Shown here: positions 5,827-18,456 of the stretch, piece after piece
How the letters are laid out: each line of letters starts with the position of its first letter
Numbering within the stretch: position 1 is the stretch's first letter
Made by a program: the position numbers and the translations under genes
Origin: an uncultured Gammaproteobacteria bacterium
GTDB taxonomy: Bacteria; Patescibacteriota; Patescibacteriia; Patescibacteriales; UBA12465
NCBI GenBank assembly: GCA_964559375.1
Contig: CAZLGE010000001.1
Location: 27,492-71,862 of the forward strand
DNA: 44,371 nucleotides
Reading direction: 5' to 3'
Notes under the pieces: model-generated
What the model was told of the DNA's origin: nothing
Database searches by the model: none
The model's input: the letters and a program-made list of their open reading frames with translations, nothing else

Positions 5827-7089
5827 ATGGCTTTTTACCCTAAACTATCTATGAAAAATATCCTGTCCCGACTGATCAAGCTGAGTTGTTTGGCACTATT
5901 TGCCATAAGCTTGCTGTCCGGCGGCTCGTCTGTCCTGGGGCAGAGTAGCGATATCGATGCGGAGATCAGTGAGCTTAACCAGAAGATTCAGGCGCAAAAG
6001 AAGCAAATCGATGCGCTTCGTTTGCGCCAGCAAGAATACCAAACACAGATCCAAGCCAAGCAGCAAGAGCGCACCAGTTTGAGTAATCAGCTGGCAATAC
6101 TGGAAAATCGTCTAGCTAAAGCCAAGCTTGATATTGAAAGCGCTAATTTGGAAATCGATAAGACGAACTTGGAGATCAAGAAGGTAGAAATTGATAAGGA
6201 CAACCTCGATAAAAAAATTGAGACGCAGAAGCTGCACATCGCCAGTCTGCTCCGCTCGATCTATAAGCAGGACCAGGTATCCACTTTAGAGATACTGCTT
6301 CTAAATAATTCACTCACAGAGTTCTTGAACCAAGCTCGTTATCTGCAAGATGCCAATATCGAGATCGGCCGCAGTGTCGAAGACCTGAAAATGAACAAGG
6401 AACTGCTGGATCAGAACATCGTCGTCCTCGACGCCAAGAACAAAGAGATGCTCGCCCTTAAGACGGAACTTGAGGAAAAAAAGGAAAGTTTATCTTACGA
6501 GCAGTCTAATAAGTCCAACCTTCTTGCCGAGACCCGCGCTTCAGAAAGGGAATACCAGAATCTTATCGAGCAGGGGAAGCGCGAGCAGCGCCAAGCCGAA
6601 GCAGCGATTGCCAGCGCAGAGATCCTGATCCGTCAAAAGATGACCGAAAAAGAACGGCAGACACTAAATAATGGCAATAATACGATTGCCTGGCCAGTTG
6701 CCCGTAACGTCATCACCGCCGGTTTTCACGATTCCACTTATCCCTACAAAAACTTAATTGGCGAACATCCGGCTGTTGATATACGCGCCAAACAGGGCAG
6801 CACGATCATGGCCGCTGCCGACGGTTATGTCGCCAAGGTTAAGTCCGACGGCACCAAAAATTACGCCTATATCATGCTCATCCATGGTAACGGCTTATCC
6901 ACCGTTTACGGACACGTCTCGGCAGTCTTTGTGATGCAGGACCAATATGTTAAGCAGGGACAGGCGATCGGTCGATCGGGTGGCATGCCGGGCGGCACCG
7001 GTTCCGGACCGTTCACGACTGGGCCACATCTGCACTTTGAAGTTCGCTTGAATGGTTTGCCGGTTAATCCGGAGAACTATCTGCCTTAA
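5827..7089 (+). CDS. M23 (LytM-type) metallopeptidase with a long N-terminal coiled coil (EnvC-like)
   Basis: 420 aa. Signal/TM segment, then about 250 aa of heptad-rich Q/E/K sequence. C-terminal HPAVDI...GPHLHFEVRLNG motifs match M23. An alternative start at 5851 (MKNILS...) is possible. Confidence 0.88.
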   Translation: MAFYPKLSMKNILSRLIKLSCLALFAISLLSGGSSVLGQSSDIDAEISELNQKIQAQKKQIDALRLRQQEYQTQIQAKQQERTSLSNQLAILENRLAKAKLDIESANLEIDKTNLEIKKVEIDKDNLDKKIETQKLHIASLLRSIYKQDQVSTLEILLLNNSLTEFLNQARYLQDANIEIGRSVEDLKMNKELLDQNIVVLDAKNKEMLALKTELEEKKESLSYEQSNKSNLLAETRASEREYQNLIEQGKREQRQAEAAIASAEILIRQKMTEKERQTLNNGNNTIAWPVARNVITAGFHDSTYPYKNLIGEHPAVDIRAKQGSTIMAAADGYVAKVKSDGTKNYAYIMLIHGNGLSTVYGHVSAVFVMQDQYVKQGQAIGRSGGMPGGTGSGPFTTGPHLHFEVRLNGLPVNPENYLP

Positions 7090-7177
7090 ATTTATTTGCA
7101 ACATTATTAATTATAATAATATGTTGAGTGATAATTTTTTTTCAAAGTTCATTAACAAAAAAGAGAAGGAGAAAAAA

Positions 7178-7654
7178 ATGAACAATAAACCAAGCAAAGA
7201 AGAGGCCAAACAGGAATTAATTGAAAAATTTGGCATGGATAATACTTGGAGTTTTCAATGGGCTTTACGAAGAGGAGAGATTGAATTAGCTGAAAATTGG
7301 TTAAACTATATTATCGACAATAAAGAAAATTTTCCGCAATATGAAGGGAATTGGGATGAATGGTTAAAAGATCGCCAAGAAAATATCAGCACCTATAAAG
7401 AACTTAAAGCCAATGGGACTCTAGAAAAAACCGAAACTAAAACCATAAAATCGGTTAGCGAGGAGGGATTAAGAAGATTTGGAATAACCGACACAAAGGA
7501 TTTTAGACGATGCTTACAGGAGGGTAAAGTTGATAGCGCCCAATCCTGGTTTGAATATGTGCAAGAGAATATTATATATTTTACTCAATATTCAACAAAA
7601 AAATGGCTTTCGGACCGCCAAAAAGAATTAGCTGATGCTAAAAATAAAGGATGA
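7178..7654 (+). CDS. hypothetical protein made of two ~55-aa internal repeats (low-GC orphan)
   Basis: I prefer the ATG at 7178 (after GAAGGAG) over the track start at 7052. The repeats are FGMDNTWSFQWALRRGEIELAENWLNYIIDNKENFPQY..WDEWLKDRQ and FGITDTKDFRRCLQEGKVDSAQSWFEYVQENIIYFTQY..KKWLSDRQ. I recognise no family. Confidence 0.6.
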   Translation: MNNKPSKEEAKQELIEKFGMDNTWSFQWALRRGEIELAENWLNYIIDNKENFPQYEGNWDEWLKDRQENISTYKELKANGTLEKTETKTIKSVSEEGLRRFGITDTKDFRRCLQEGKVDSAQSWFEYVQENIIYFTQYSTKKWLSDRQKELADAKNKG

Positions 7655-7713: not shown

Positions 7714-8670
7714 TTAGAACTCTCGTCCTTCATGCACCTTACGGTGGATATCGCGGAGCTGCTTATTAGTGACGTGAGTATAGATCTGGGTAGTAGCGAT
7801 ATTACTGTGTCCCAAAAATTCCTGTACGGTGCGGAGGTCAACGCCTTGATTAAGAAGGTCGGTAGCAAAGGAGTGGCGCAGCGTGTGAGGCGTGGCCATG
7901 ACCGGTAAGCCGGCTATCTTCACATATTTTTTAACGATATCCTCGATACTCTTTACGGTCAAGCGGCGCGAGTCCTGTGTCTTAGTTGCACCCCGACGGT
8001 AATTAATGAACAGGGCATCATCCATATCTTTACGCTCCTTAAGGTAAGCGCGCAAAGCGGTGATTGCCCGGCCAGAAAAATATACTGTCCGGAGTTTACT
8101 TCCTTTACCAATTATCGCCGTCTCGATGTCTTTAGTGTCATCCTTGATTCGTAACTGGTCCCGATCTAGGGCGGCTAGTTCAGCGACTCGCAGACCGGTC
8201 GAAAATAGGGTTTCCAGAAGTGACCGATCACGCAGGCCGATGATCGTTCCCTGAGAAGGAGCGCTAAGCAGCCGTGACAACTGCTCGAGCTTTAAAAATT
8301 TTATTTCTTTATCAGCTTTATCTTTAGCTAATTTTACTTTTGAAGGCGACAGGGAAGTGATGTCTTTTTCGACGAAAAACTCCAGAAGAGAGCGCAGCGC
8401 TATCAGGTAGTAGTTCTGCGTAGTCTTTTTAAGGGTTTTATTTGTCCTTTTATCCGCATGGCGCGACAGATATACTTTATACTGCCAGATGAGCTCCGGA
8501 GTCAGGGAAGAGGGTTGGAGGGCCTCCCGACCAGTGTCCTTGAGCCAGCCGAAGAACTTCCGGAGGAAGCGAGTATAATTTTCCTGGGTCTTCGAGGAGA
8601 GACCCTTCTCGATCTCCGAATAATCCAGAAAGTCGGTCAGGTATTTTATTATCGGCTTATGCTTATCCAT
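7714..8670 (-). CDS. tyrosine site-specific recombinase, XerC/XerD family
   Basis: 318 aa. N-terminal SAM-like core-binding domain. C-terminal catalytic motifs: ..GLRVAELAAL.., HTLRHSFATDLL, LGHSNIATTQIYTHV (R..HxxR..Y). Confidence 0.9.
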   Translation of the reverse strand: MDKHKPIIKYLTDFLDYSEIEKGLSSKTQENYTRFLRKFFGWLKDTGREALQPSSLTPELIWQYKVYLSRHADKRTNKTLKKTTQNYYLIALRSLLEFFVEKDITSLSPSKVKLAKDKADKEIKFLKLEQLSRLLSAPSQGTIIGLRDRSLLETLFSTGLRVAELAALDRDQLRIKDDTKDIETAIIGKGSKLRTVYFSGRAITALRAYLKERKDMDDALFINYRRGATKTQDSRRLTVKSIEDIVKKYVKIAGLPVMATPHTLRHSFATDLLNQGVDLRTVQEFLGHSNIATTQIYTHVTNKQLRDIHRKVHEGREF

Positions 8671-8679
8671 AGCAGGTTA

Positions 8680-8688
8680 ATTATATCA
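8680..8688 (-). promoter_or_regulatory. extended -10 element (TGATATAAT) 9 nt upstream of the xer ATG; near-leaderless transcript predicted
   Basis: Minus strand reads TGATATAAT-TAACCTGCT-ATG. There is no SD and no convincing -35. Confidence 0.45.
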
Positions 8689-8763: not shown

Positions 8764-8791
8764 ACTTCGCATAATGTATATTAATCCACCT
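8764..8791. other. dif-like Xer recombination site
   Basis: ACTTCGCATAA-TGTATA-TTAATCCACCT. The 16 contiguous nt CGCATAATGTATATTA are identical to E. coli dif (GGTGCGCATAATGTATATTATGTTAAAT, recalled from memory). Intergenic, 94 bp upstream of xer. Confidence 0.7.
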
Positions 8792-8798
8792 ATTATCT

Positions 8799-8830
8799 AA
8801 AGCAAAAGAAGGGCGGCAGAGCTTGCCCCC
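8799..8830 (-). terminator. intrinsic terminator after the ftsQ-like/small-ORF unit
   Basis: Minus strand: GGGGGCA-AGCUC-UGCC(G)CCC hairpin followed by UUCUUUUGCUUU. Confidence 0.55.
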
Positions 8831-8971
8831 TTAACTGATCAGTAAACCCATCAAATTGATCTCCGGCTGGAATAACAGGATTATCTTGATAATCAGCAAG
8901 AATAAACCGATTATTGTGATACAGAATACCAGGACGGCAAGAAAAAAAATAAATTTAAACGCTGTTTCCAT
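8831..8971 (-). CDS. possible 46-aa small membrane protein
   Basis: Below the track cutoff. ATG lies 5 nt after the ftsQ-like stop. METAFKFIFFLAVLVFCITIIGLFLLIIKIILLFQPEINLMGLLIS contains one strong TM helix, and a terminator follows. Confidence 0.35.
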   Translation of the reverse strand: METAFKFIFFLAVLVFCITIIGLFLLIIKIILLFQPEINLMGLLIS

Positions 8972-8976
8972 ATAGT

Positions 8977-9828
8977 TTATTTAAAATCTGGGTTGATAAA
9001 TATCCGATCGCCGAAGCGTAGGTCTACATACTCGGTCCTGCTAAAATTATCCTTTATTTTCTCTTTTTTGACAAGGACAAGGCGTTCTAGTTGCGTGGCC
9101 GCTCCATCATTGGTACTGAAATAAACAATCGGTCCGTCCTTAAATTTAGCCTTTAAAGTATTGAATTCCCAGTCGATGATGAATTTTTCCAGGCTCAATT
9201 CTTCATTGGCGATTATCAGCTCATTAAGGTCAAGAGCAAACCCCAAATAATCAGTATTGACATTAATCTTATTTTTGTGTCCTATCAGCGTTCCGGGATT
9301 TTTGTTTTCCAAGATAAAGTATTTTTGCTTGTCCTCATCACTCACTGCCTGGTCCTTAATGATATATCCGTCACCAGATGCGTAAAACAGGTCACTTCCC
9401 TCTTGCCAGATGAAGGCGTAAGGACGTTCATAACCAGTAACCTCAAGCGTCCGCGGCCACTTTTTTTGAATCGTACAGTCGGTCAAATTATAGGCAGCAA
9501 TCAAATCTTCAGCTGCTTTCTCTCCATCAAAAAGAAAAATGTTACTTTCCGAAAACAGGAGCCAACGCGACTCCTTAGTTTGGCGCCAGATAATATCTTC
9601 GACGGAATCAGCGGAAACTCTGGTCAGTCCGCCCAGCTGGACATTTTGTATTATCCAAAAAGGGGCCGACAGAAAAAACCAAACTAGCGCGCCGGCGACC
9701 AATATTCCGGCCGCAATCAAACAGCGTCGGAGGCGTCCGCCCTGCGGGCTAGTTTTTTTCCGGAAGAAAGGATTATGAAGATTCTTGGGCTGATAATCTT
9801 TTTTTATGTGCCTGTCGTATGGGGTCAT
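8977..9828 (-). CDS. ftsQ: FtsQ/DivIB-like cell division protein (TM anchor + POTRA)
   Basis: 283 aa. Basic N-terminus, one TM helix, then a POTRA-like segment (IQNVQLGGLTRVSADSVEDII). Strong SD (GGAGGG) upstream. Confidence 0.6.
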   Translation of the reverse strand: MTPYDRHIKKDYQPKNLHNPFFRKKTSPQGGRLRRCLIAAGILVAGALVWFFLSAPFWIIQNVQLGGLTRVSADSVEDIIWRQTKESRWLLFSESNIFLFDGEKAAEDLIAAYNLTDCTIQKKWPRTLEVTGYERPYAFIWQEGSDLFYASGDGYIIKDQAVSDEDKQKYFILENKNPGTLIGHKNKINVNTDYLGFALDLNELIIANEELSLEKFIIDWEFNTLKAKFKDGPIVYFSTNDGAATQLERLVLVKKEKIKDNFSRTEYVDLRFGDRIFINPDFK

Positions 9829-9939
9829 ATTACTTCCCTCCTGATATTAGCCTGAGGTCTGGCTAGCAATTCATAAACAATCTTCGGCTTGAATATCTGC
9901 TTAAAAATTTTTTTCATGTTTATTGTTAACGGCGATATA

Positions 9940-15975: not shown

Positions 15976-18456
15976 TTATTTCACGATACTGGTGCGGCGT
16001 CTAATTTCCGCTTCGACTAAACGACTATTTTGTCCATACTTTAAACGACTTAGGGCTCTTATTTTTGAAGCGATTTCCGGTCTTTTTACCCCTAATAAAG
16101 GCCAAATTGTCTTTAAAGTAAAGGGTCGGGCCGCGCTATTATCAATCAGGAGTTTTAAGCAAGCCATTCCCTTATCGATGTTTATTAAATCATATTCATT
16201 AAAAACCGGCGCGAATTCTTTGACTAAAAATTCCGCGTCCTCCGAACCAATTTTAAAACTAATCATTGTTCCGACGTTACCGAAAACTGCGTCTTTAATT
16301 TCCGTATTATTATTTTTAGCCAGCTGACCGATATATTGATGGGCGATTACTAAATTAAGAGCGTATTTTCGCGCTTCCGATAAAATCTGACAAATTGAAT
16401 TTGTCGTAAAGTTTTGAAACTCATCGATATATAAATAAAAATCTTTACGTTCCGCGTTCGGAACATCGGTGCGCGATAAAGCAGCCATTAAAATTTTTCC
16501 GACTAAAATCATGCCGAGTAAATAAGCGTTCATTTCGCCGACGACGCCTTTCGGCAAATCAATTAATAATATTTTTTGATTATCCATGATGTCGCGCAGC
16601 TTGAAAGCACTTTCTTGCTGACCGATAATCGGCCGCATCATATCGTTTGAAATAAAGGAAGTAAGTTTCGAAGTGATATAAGGTACGATATTGGCAAGCG
16701 CCGCTTCGCCACCCGCTTTCTCCGCTTCCTTGCGCCAAAAATCGACGACCGGCTGATTTTTACAACGACTTAGTTTATACTTTCTAAAATCCTCATCGGC
16801 GAGAACCTTAGGAATTTCCATTAACGTTGAACCCGATTCCGGATCATCCATAATTAAAAGCATGGCATTGCGCATGTATTGTTCGAACATCGGTCCGCCC
16901 GTCGCTTTTAAATCATATAACTTATCAAAAATTCCGATCATCTCGTTAATCACAAAACTTTTTTGTTCCGGATATTTCGGATCGTATTCAAGCAAGTTTA
17001 AGGCCATCGGTCGCTCTAAATCGCCTGGTGAAAAAACAACCACATCCTCGCCGCGGTCCGGCGGGATGCGATCTAAAATATCGGCAATTAAATCACCATG
17101 CGGATCAATGACGCAAACACCTTCCCCGTTTTGAATATCTTGCACCGCCATATTGCAAAGCAATACCGATTTACCGACCCCGGATTTACCGACAATATAG
17201 GTATGACGACGACGATCAGAGCGCCCGATACGTATTTCTCTTTTCACCCCTCGATAAACGTTTTCGCCAAGCGAAATTCCTTCTTCCGGCAAAGTTGCCG
17301 GCGCGGGCGCTATTTTTGAAGTTAACCAAACTATGTTTGGCGTTTCTGTCCCCTTCAACGGCAAATGATATAAACTCGTCAATTCTTCCGTGCCTAATAA
17401 AAAACTAAGATTTTCTTCAAAACGGCGGTAAATAAAATCATCAATAATTTTATGTTGATTTCCCTTATAAATGCGGGAAAAATTATTGCCGTAATGATAA
17501 TTATTAAATTCGTTATAAACGTTTGAGAAATTCTCAAGATAATAATTCGCTTTTTCTTTTGTCTCGGCGCAAACAATTAAACGTAAATTTACTTCTAAAC
17601 CGGCTTTAAGATTTTTCTCTTCAATCATCTTAAGCATGTCCTGTTCAACCTGCGTTAAGTATTTCATCGTCTGCATTCCCGGCTGAGACGCATTCTGCGA
17701 GGCCGGTTTAGGCGGAAACACTGCATAGTATGTGGCCCACAAAGGATTACTTGCTCTTAGACCATGCCAGACTGAACCACAGCGGTTGATCATTACGGAA
17801 GTTCTTTTGCTCGCTTTGTGCCAACTCGGCGGGGCACTCCGCACGACATATTGAATAACGATACTTTCCTGCCGATCTAATTTTGATAAAACATTAATAA
17901 TCGAGTTAAGCGGATCGACCAACATTTTTTCATAAGTCTTTAAGGATAAAACAAATTTATTTTTCGTTTTTAAATAAGCGGCCGAAACATAATTGGTCGG
18001 CGTAAAAGAATTATAGTCTAAAACTTCCTCTAAAACCGCATCGGGATAATGGGCGGTAATTTGTTTTTCTAAATATAAAGCATGACGCTCCGGGGCAACC
18101 GCATAAAAATAAATTTTGCCTTGTTGGGCGACAATTTCAAATGAAAAATGATCATCGCGACCCAAAAGCCAACTCATAAAACCACCCTGAACACGTAAAC
18201 CGCCGATGGAAGCAAAAATAGTTTCGCCCTTGGCGATTTCTTCTTTTAGTTGTTGCGGGGTTGTTTCCTTATTTTCATCTTTCGGTTTTTCTTTCGGCAA
18301 GCGAATTAAAAAAAGACGGTGTTTAAAATGATTTCGCCCGAGACCGAAAATTTTAATAACTTTTCGCGCGAGCAGTAAAAGAATATACAAAAAAAGAAGC
18401 GCGCCCGCCATCTGCAGAATCAAAACCGGATTTAGATAACTCGTTGGATCTTGCAT
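15976..18456 (-). CDS. membrane-anchored VirD4/TraD/TraG-like (type IV coupling protein family) P-loop ATPase with an unknown ~400-aa N-terminal region
   Basis: 826 aa. N-terminal TM helix, Walker A IVGKSGVGKSVLL, Walker B FYLYIDEFQNF, then LVIAHQYIGQL. This pattern matches the T4CP/FtsK-HerA superfamily. GC is markedly lower than the flanks. Confidence 0.75.
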   Translation of the reverse strand: MQDPTSYLNPVLILQMAGALLFLYILLLLARKVIKIFGLGRNHFKHRLFLIRLPKEKPKDENKETTPQQLKEEIAKGETIFASIGGLRVQGGFMSWLLGRDDHFSFEIVAQQGKIYFYAVAPERHALYLEKQITAHYPDAVLEEVLDYNSFTPTNYVSAAYLKTKNKFVLSLKTYEKMLVDPLNSIINVLSKLDRQESIVIQYVVRSAPPSWHKASKRTSVMINRCGSVWHGLRASNPLWATYYAVFPPKPASQNASQPGMQTMKYLTQVEQDMLKMIEEKNLKAGLEVNLRLIVCAETKEKANYYLENFSNVYNEFNNYHYGNNFSRIYKGNQHKIIDDFIYRRFEENLSFLLGTEELTSLYHLPLKGTETPNIVWLTSKIAPAPATLPEEGISLGENVYRGVKREIRIGRSDRRRHTYIVGKSGVGKSVLLCNMAVQDIQNGEGVCVIDPHGDLIADILDRIPPDRGEDVVVFSPGDLERPMALNLLEYDPKYPEQKSFVINEMIGIFDKLYDLKATGGPMFEQYMRNAMLLIMDDPESGSTLMEIPKVLADEDFRKYKLSRCKNQPVVDFWRKEAEKAGGEAALANIVPYITSKLTSFISNDMMRPIIGQQESAFKLRDIMDNQKILLIDLPKGVVGEMNAYLLGMILVGKILMAALSRTDVPNAERKDFYLYIDEFQNFTTNSICQILSEARKYALNLVIAHQYIGQLAKNNNTEIKDAVFGNVGTMISFKIGSEDAEFLVKEFAPVFNEYDLINIDKGMACLKLLIDNSAARPFTLKTIWPLLGVKRPEIASKIRALSRLKYGQNSRLVEAEIRRRTSIVK

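Follow-up and report, generated by a model that had tools for sequence, protein, structure and literature searches.

The window, meaning the whole 44,371-nt stretch of DNA analysed here, is a housekeeping stretch that includes gltX, serS, metG, dnaX and the genes for CTP synthase, GAPDH, a CCA-adding enzyme, an M23 peptidase and an FtsQ-like protein. Its closest proteins and genome records are those of Patescibacteria, many of them named Candidatus Falkowbacteria, and the source chromosome is that of a Candidatus Falkowbacteria-like member of the Patescibacteria. Contigs encoding the same Xer protein extend the window leftwards by approximately 2.3 kb; exact look-ups of three other window proteins gave no record. 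Many MAG records that contain this Patescibacteria module are titled 'uncultured Gammaproteobacteria', 'Bacillota' or 'Planctomycetota' (L002, L012, L014, L015, L020, L045 and others), which suggests that the source records were mislabelled or wrongly binned. In the window lies a gene for a tyrosine recombinase (xer), and 94 bp upstream of its ATG (8670) an intergenic 28-bp sequence resembles the dif sites of other bacteria. The features of the locus, together with a related set of sites found on phage contigs, are collected in Table 1.

Table 1 Features of the xer locus (window coordinates) and second-type palindromes on phage contigs (contig coordinates)
Feature	Position	Strand	Basis or remarks
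dif-like 28-bp recombination site, 11-6-11: ACTTCGCATAA-TGTATA-TTAATCCACCT	8764..8791	.	direct read, conservation, identity with E. coli dif
xer-proximal arm ACTTCGCATAA (TTATGCGAAGT in xer orientation)	8764..8774	.	near-invariant; proposed high-affinity Xer binding arm
6-bp centre TGTATA (putative strand-exchange region)	8775..8780	.	same as E. coli dif centre
distal arm TTAATCCACCT (reverse complement AGGTGGATTAA)	8781..8791	.	inner TTAA kept, outer 7 nt variable
xer, 318-aa XerC/D-like tyrosine recombinase	7714..8670	-	Pfam, structure match, catalytic residues
possible extended -10 element TGATATAAT	8680..8688	-	read from sequence, 9 nt before xer ATG
M23 peptidase	5827-7089	+	Pfam Peptidase_M23 1.2e-24; beside xer in nearly all relatives; points toward xer and the site
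small ORF ending at 7654	within 5827..7654	+	transcribed toward xer and the site
weak hairpin with T-rich tail, end of FtsQ-like/46-aa operon	8798..8832	-	9-pair hairpin, -12.7 kcal/mol, z = -0.44
46-aa hydrophobic ORF	8831-8971	-	ORF call; transcribed toward the site
FtsQ-like POTRA protein	8977-9828	-	weak POTRA_1 match; transcribed toward the site; synteny kept through the clade
second-type phage palindromes	L240 1333-1360, L221 947-974, L230 623-650, L247 2725-2752, L251 37-64, L254 3237-3264, others		

A preliminary description of this DNA, made by reading the sequence, had proposed the 28-mer as a dif-like site. The window indeed reads ACTTCGCATAATGTATATTAATCCACCT at 8764-8791, as given there. 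The 28-mer occurs once in the 44-kb window when up to 3 mismatches are allowed, and 100 shuffles of the sequence gave 0 matches. Furthermore, a weight matrix built from related sites scored 8764-8791 at 44.6 bits, the sole position in the window to reach 8 bits or more. The site has the architecture of dif, in which two inverted 11-bp arms flank a 6-bp centre; its own arms share an inner TTA/TAA. The preliminary description also gave an identity between its first five nucleotides and the start of B. subtilis dif; the B. subtilis sequence quoted was not found in PMC2731167. The 16-nt identity with E. coli K12 dif (8768-8783) given there holds against the table in the same source, in which the E. 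coli site is given as GGTGCGCATAATGTATATTATGTTAAAT (PMC2731167). The table also lists the dif of Thiobacillus denitrificans, ACTTCGCATAATGTATATTATGTTAAAT (PMC2731167), with which the window site shares 20 contiguous identical nucleotides.

The right arm had been said to depart from the XerD type, and the XerD-type arm TTATGTTAAAT is in fact absent from the window site. Because it is absent, a degenerate proteobacterial dif pattern run on the window missed the true site and returned chance-level matches only. The arm that proved invariant among relatives (see below) is the counterpart, by alignment, of the XerC arm of proteobacteria. For dif sites of the canonical type, it is the XerD arm that is regarded as the best conserved.

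The Xer protein matched Phage_integrase (PF00589) at 8e-40 together with SAM_1 (PF02899). Its nearest solved structure was E. coli XerD (1a0p, E = 3e-35), with XerA 4a8e at 2e-30 and 5hxy at 2e-26 as the next best. The XerH structure 5jjv aligned over the catalytic domain only (E = 3e-13), and the protein does not belong to the XerH family. Catalytic R, K, HxxR, H and Y residues lie in register with those of XerD 1a0p, within the motifs GLRVAEL, GKGSKLR, HTLRH, GHS and IYTHV; the protein therefore carries both the R-K-H-x-x-R-H-Y set and the SAM-like N-terminal domain by which the tyrosine recombinase superfamily is recognised. Scores against the curated NCBIfam models fell below the cut-off in every case: 221.5 bits against 335.15 for XerC (TIGR02224), 215.2 against 329.6 for XerD (TIGR02225), 185.1 against 220 for XerA (NF040815) and 110.6 against 267 for the XerS model. 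We have therefore filed the protein under none of these four families. By phmmer search it is the single tyrosine recombinase detectable in the 44-kb window, as the preliminary description had it.

At the C-terminal stretch by which XerD contacts the FtsK gamma domain, the query reads LRDIHRK where XerD reads LRQLHQQ; it retains the arginine but has other residues in place of the glutamines. No match to the FtsK family was obtained in the 44-kb window. According to passages of a review of single-recombinase systems, XerS likewise is without the XerD-type RQ-QQ contacts and still needs FtsK (PMC5357621); any dependence of the present enzyme on FtsK would be an extrapolation from such cases.

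Around the site, the table shows genes on both flanks transcribed towards it. The preliminary description had counted five plus-strand genes on the left and eleven minus-strand genes on the right; the convergence on the site is real, but both counts are approximate. A terminator had likewise been placed at 8799-8830. A modest hairpin with a T-rich minus-strand tail is present there, but it folds no better than shuffled sequences and was not called by a consensus scan. GC-rich-then-T-run motifs recur at the position of this hairpin in relatives. On the xer side, TGATATAAT could be the extended -10 element of xer, which would give a nearly leaderless transcript; the promoter consensus scan did not call the element at 8680..8688, and no good -35 was seen with it.

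Elsewhere in the window, an 826-aa DUF8128 protein encoded beside dnaX (15976-18456, minus strand) bears a weak likeness to type IV coupling proteins (TrwB/TraG) and keeps its position in relatives L081 and L206-L208. Close relatives carry an alanine racemase gene between the genes for a 350-aa protein and the FtsQ-like protein (L206 6775-7917, L207 7263-8402, L208 7681-8820), at a place represented in the window only by a 111-bp gap (9829-9939).

Conservation of the 28-mer upstream of orthologous xer genes had been set as a check on the dif reading. One scan of species-representative genomes yielded 80 loci, each from a different species, with xer orthologues whose proteins are 67-90% identical to that of the window. 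The 28-mer was found upstream of xer, in the same relative orientation and with no more than 6 mismatches, in 75 of the 80; a 76th copy is cut by a contig end. Three loci with less than 90 bp of upstream flank were uninformative, which leaves the site present in 76 of 77 informative genomes. The exception is L045, in which the site is absent from the 758 bp upstream of xer. Information content was 1.71 bits per position across the site compared with 0.34 and 0.42 in the two 30-nt flanks, and over the same genomes the FtsQ-like neighbour has drifted to 27-60% identity.

This conservation is unevenly distributed within the site. Across columns 17-28, which contain the xer-proximal arm, 73-75 of the 75 aligned sites are identical at every position. 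The centre, read in xer orientation, is TATACA in 49/75 and TCTACA in 25/75. Columns 1-7 of the distal arm vary from AGGTGTA to ACTTCGC, with the inner TTAA kept, and these outer positions vary freely even among close relatives.

The distribution of the motif was also restricted. Exact matches to the 22-nt core were sought in public metagenome contigs and obtained at 100 loci, 89 of which have xer downstream in the same orientation; the remaining 11 have at most 772 bp of flank on the xer side, and no occurrence was shown to be without xer. No second site of at least 12 bits was found in 1.36 Mb of related loci. Dispersal of the motif through the genome, named beforehand as an outcome that would count against a dif site, is thus not seen in the 100 metagenome core loci or in the 1.36 Mb of related loci.

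Between site and xer lie 52 to 2029 bp in the 89 metagenome loci (median 112 bp). About 17 relatives carry unrelated small genes between dif and xer, all of them transcribed towards the site; such insertions occupy, for example, L001 2073-2660, L005 2108-2911, L009 2101-2859, L021 2129-2869 and about 2400-2950 in L019, L026 and L028. The gap beside dif looks like a hotspot for gene gain. Some relatives also have an extra isolated half-site, ACTTCGCATAATAT, inverted, between dif and the xer start (L076 2973-2986, L070 2963-2976, L060 2891-2904, L066 1243-1256, L003 2806-2818), in some cases directly before the start codon. No such half-site is present in the window; where it occurs, it may serve for autoregulatory binding.

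These observations bear on the proposal that the motif is only an operator or promoter of xer, or the site of an invertible switch, and has no part in dimer resolution. Its location upstream of xer would suit an operator, and the extra half-site at the xer start of some relatives does suggest autoregulatory binding. However, the spacing varies from tens of base pairs to two kilobases with other genes in between, which argues against a role confined to the promotion or control of xer transcription. Moreover, the 11-6-11 architecture and the centre are those of dif, and an inversion switch would be expected to have an inverted partner copy, of which none was found in the window or in the 1.36 Mb of related loci. 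We regard this proposal as very improbable.

Copies of the site were also sought in viral contigs. With tight patterns, the palindromic form of the site (described below) was matched in 8 viral contigs and the Falkowbacteria form in 1 more; by a rough estimate, the number expected by chance is well under one. A looser scan with 15 specified bases gave matches that were nearly all chance or coding. Genes for terminase, portal, major head protein and primase are present on the mimic-bearing contigs, which share 22-54% amino-acid identity among themselves. None carries host genes of this window, and no tyrosine recombinase was detected on them, L110 excepted. One phage contig was reassembled over 34.4 of its 38.9 kb, and no tyrosine recombinase was found in it; its site reads AGGTGGATTAA-TGTATC-TTATGCGAAGT, in which both arms are those of the window and the centre differs. 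A generic inverted-repeat search in the phage loci showed no positional enrichment, whereas the motif-specific search succeeded.

Full 28-mer mimics lie just upstream of the terminase operon in L205 (10041-10068; the same contig as L209, 3209-3236), L098, L109, L137, L140, L203 and L204. L205 is the one in which both arms are identical to those of the window site and the centre is TGTATC. In L123, two dif-like sites in direct orientation (1867-1894 and 2799-2826) stand 932 bp apart with only small ORFs between them, an arrangement that resembles a module flanked by dif sites or a nested element. L110 has the dif-like site ACTTCGATTAAGTTAAATTATGCGAAGT at its contig end (17-44) and its own tyrosine recombinase (484-1578), which is 25% identical to the window Xer.

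A further 80 relatives of these phages were collected through the portal protein. About a dozen of them carry a second dif-like palindrome, ATGTCGCACAA-N6-TTGTGCGACAT, in most cases some 1.85-2.5 kb upstream of the portal gene, the same place as the first type. Presumably the second palindrome imitates a dif from another lineage of hosts, and we infer that arm differences between phages track the lineage of the host.

The phage copies raise the question of whether the chromosomal 28-mer might itself mark the attachment site or junction of a mobile element that had integrated, with the neighbouring gene as that element's integrase. A tyrosine recombinase gene next to its target site is typical of integrative elements, and similar sites do occur on phage contigs. 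Against this, the flanking genes are housekeeping genes that are syntenic across at least 80 species, the recombinase is conserved at the level given above, no partner site exists in the 1.36 Mb of loci, and the mimic-bearing phage contigs are without this gene. An origin of this kind is exceedingly improbable. Synteny, the missing partner copy and the variable distance to xer led us to reject the integrated-element, inversion-switch and pure-operator readings.

We conclude that the 28-mer is very probably the chromosomal dif site of this Falkowbacteria-like member of the Patescibacteria and the target of the XerC/D-like recombinase encoded beside it. This reading of the sequence is strongly supported by comparative evidence. 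The presence of dif mimics in tailed-phage contigs is an independent sign that the sequence is a recombination target.

Whether one recombinase or two would act at the site was considered from the structure of its arms. Many relatives have ACTTCGCTTAA as the distal arm and hence a 10/11 palindromic site, ACTTCGCTTAA-N6-TTATGCGAAGT. L003, whose Xer is 87% identical to that of the window, has the palindromic arm, and others at similar identity have AGGTGTATTAA. Because both kinds of arm accompany Xer proteins of similar identity, one Xer protein seems to tolerate both, a pattern that would follow from tight binding to one arm and cooperative binding to the other by a single recombinase. Additionally, the site is genetically linked to the recombinase gene as in known single-recombinase modules, and passages of a review name dif-gene linkage as a possible hallmark of such systems (PMC5357621).

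The arms can also be read as a classical dif for two recombinases, whereby the product of the adjacent gene would occupy the invariant arm and a second Xer paralogue, encoded elsewhere, the distal arm. The window arms match each other at only 6/11 positions, and E. coli dif, which serves two recombinases, is equally asymmetric by arm-to-arm counts made here. In the subclade of the window the distal arm has its own loose consensus, nnGTKKATTAA, which could mark a second protein, and a phage mimic copies the distal arm of the window exactly, such that its sequence may matter. The paralogue search covered 44 kb of the genome. Conversely, near-perfect palindromes in relatives with orthologous Xer proteins (67-87% identical) are not expected from two different proteins, the outer distal positions are free to vary among close relatives, and the linkage of site and gene is of the kind that the review associates with one recombinase (PMC5357621). 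We therefore consider a two-recombinase dif unlikely, and favour use of the site by a single recombinase as reasonably probable. The latter stays an interpretation because of the 6/11 match between the window arms, the distal consensus of the subclade and the 44-kb extent of the paralogue search.

By analogy with characterised Xer systems, a mechanism can be proposed for the preferred, single-recombinase version. One recombinase monomer would bind the invariant arm ACTTCGCATAA tightly, and a second would join it cooperatively on the weaker, variable arm. Two sister dif sites would synapse late in the cell cycle, whereupon the four monomers would swap strands in two ordered steps across TGTATA, adding one crossover and converting a chromosome dimer to monomers. 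The unequal arms would decide which strand pair exchanges first. In its most likely version the same recombinase would act on both arms, in a linked xer-dif module like those of XerS/difSL, XerH/difH and XerL/dif, and the module would most likely lie at or near the replication terminus.

In function, the module is very probably one for Xer/dif dimer resolution. As in XerS/difSL of streptococci and lactococci, one recombinase gene adjoins its site here and the arms are unequal, one half-site of difSL being bound more strongly according to passages of PMC5357621. XerS has 356 aa, however, compared with 318 aa here, and difSL is 31 bp with an 11-bp centre, in contrast to the 28 bp and 6-bp centre of the window site. 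Helicobacter and Campylobacter, with XerH/difH, similarly combine a single recombinase with a site near its gene, as the same passages describe (PMC5357621), yet XerH has 354-362 aa and the arms and spacer of difH are unrelated in sequence. XerL/dif of Legionellales is, like the module proposed here, a single-recombinase system in a lineage for which none had been recognised earlier, and there too a dif mimic, on the mobile element LME-1, pointed to the site, as reported in parts of PMC9765430. XerL was proven genetically whereas the module here is known from sequence, and XerL is described as a distinct system (PMC9765430); furthermore, the mimics here reside on tailed-phage contigs of approximately 40 kb of which no integrated copy was seen. 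Archaeal XerA/dif shares with the proposed module a single recombinase of canonical length acting on a conserved 28-bp, bacterial-like dif, but XerA is reported in passages of PMC5357621 to be independent of FtsK, and these passages mention no linkage of its site to the gene.

The XerCD/dif system of E. coli and most bacteria agrees in site architecture and in 16 nt that include the whole centre, and the Xer protein is closest to XerD and XerC. It differs in having two paralogous recombinases and in the XerD-type arm that is missing here. The XerCD genes are not known to adjoin dif. In layout the module matches XerS/difSL, XerH/difH and XerL/dif (PMC5357621; PMC9765430), but it has a protein of the ordinary XerC/D kind and a site of the ordinary 28-bp kind, as does archaeal XerA.

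The preliminary description had called the locus a probable replication terminus and proposed a GC-skew extremum near it as a check. In the window, cumulative G-C does peak at approximately 8600 and declines from there as far as the right-hand edge. The average over 162 distinct loci shows a GC skew of +0.08 to +0.14 in each 1-kb bin on the far side of the site. At the site the skew drops abruptly, to -0.02 to -0.05 over the first 5 kb on the xer side, and from +5 to +8 kb, among genes of mixed orientation, it is back at about 0. Among the eight loci with at least 5 kb on both sides, the skew maximum lies within 1 kb of the site in four, and the other four are without a sign change. The local maximum was recovered, but a terminus here is no more than likely, with agreement in 4/8 long loci and skew of about 0 beyond 5 kb. 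ORFs in relatives run towards the site at a ratio of 155:2 on the far side; on the xer side 193 do so with 83 exceptions, mostly xer itself. Because the flanking genes form the same syntenic block in nearly all genomes, this convergence counts as one inherited observation. An all-site regression of skew on replication and coding strand gave a side effect of -0.053; third codon positions were noisy and showed no clear side effect. In the record CP066698.1, xer lies at 204 kb of 977 kb, which is uninformative on the terminus because the start of a record need not be the origin.

A genuine Xer/dif module could also lie away from the terminus, with the local change in skew merely reflecting the switch in gene orientation. 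The return of skew to zero on the xer side, the four long loci that keep their sign, the third codon positions and the single inheritance of the convergent synteny all agree with such a location. On the other hand, the drop in skew is abrupt and falls at the site, both in the 162-locus average and in the window, and xer, a top-strand gene in these alignments, has a skew of about 0 compared with +0.11 for top-strand genes across the site. In addition, a strong correlation between the predicted position of dif and the point at which skew shifts is reported for 641 organisms (PMC3025954). A location away from the terminus seems somewhat unlikely to us. By analogy with the 641 organisms (PMC3025954), a terminus position is likely for the dif site described here, and consistent with the data.

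Returning to the phages, we found no sign of a prophage integrated at dif: no host locus in the 1.36 Mb of related loci has two sites, and all portal homologues are on contigs of 43.7 kb or less, with no integrated copy seen among them. Use of the host Xer for integration, as in elements known to exploit Xer, and use for resolution of episomal multimers are equally plausible. A joint reading of all the evidence can be ventured, to which we give somewhat less than even credence. Falkowbacteria-group bacteria would resolve chromosome dimers with one XerC/D-like recombinase acting at a gene-linked 28-bp dif, and a widespread family of tailed phages of approximately 40 kb, lacking integrases, would have copied that site, matched to the host lineage, into a fixed place upstream of their terminase operon and use the host recombinase for integration or multimer resolution.

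A search of full-text literature, mostly outside subscription journals, returned no account of Xer, of dif or of phages that mimic dif in Patescibacteria, a result that is not proof of novelty. What we describe is a familiar kind of system in a phylum unstudied for it, and the phage mimics are the most novel lead.

The Patescibacteria (candidate phyla radiation) form a very large bacterial branch that is uncultured and has tiny genomes, and how its members handle their chromosomes is almost unstudied. A dif site tied to a recognisable gene provides a landmark for the likely terminus, and could help to check and orient assembled genomes. With one gene and one 28-bp site, the system is compact enough to be taken into E. 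coli with no need to culture the organism. This would be the fifth lineage in which a site and a probably single recombinase travel together, here with a recombinase and a site of the ordinary kind and not of the divergent XerS or XerH kind. If the phage copies are functional, they would provide a rare direct sequence link between phage and host, and an example of tailed phages relying on the host Xer; if the joint reading is true, a copied dif site would permit the sequence-based assignment of phages to uncultured hosts.
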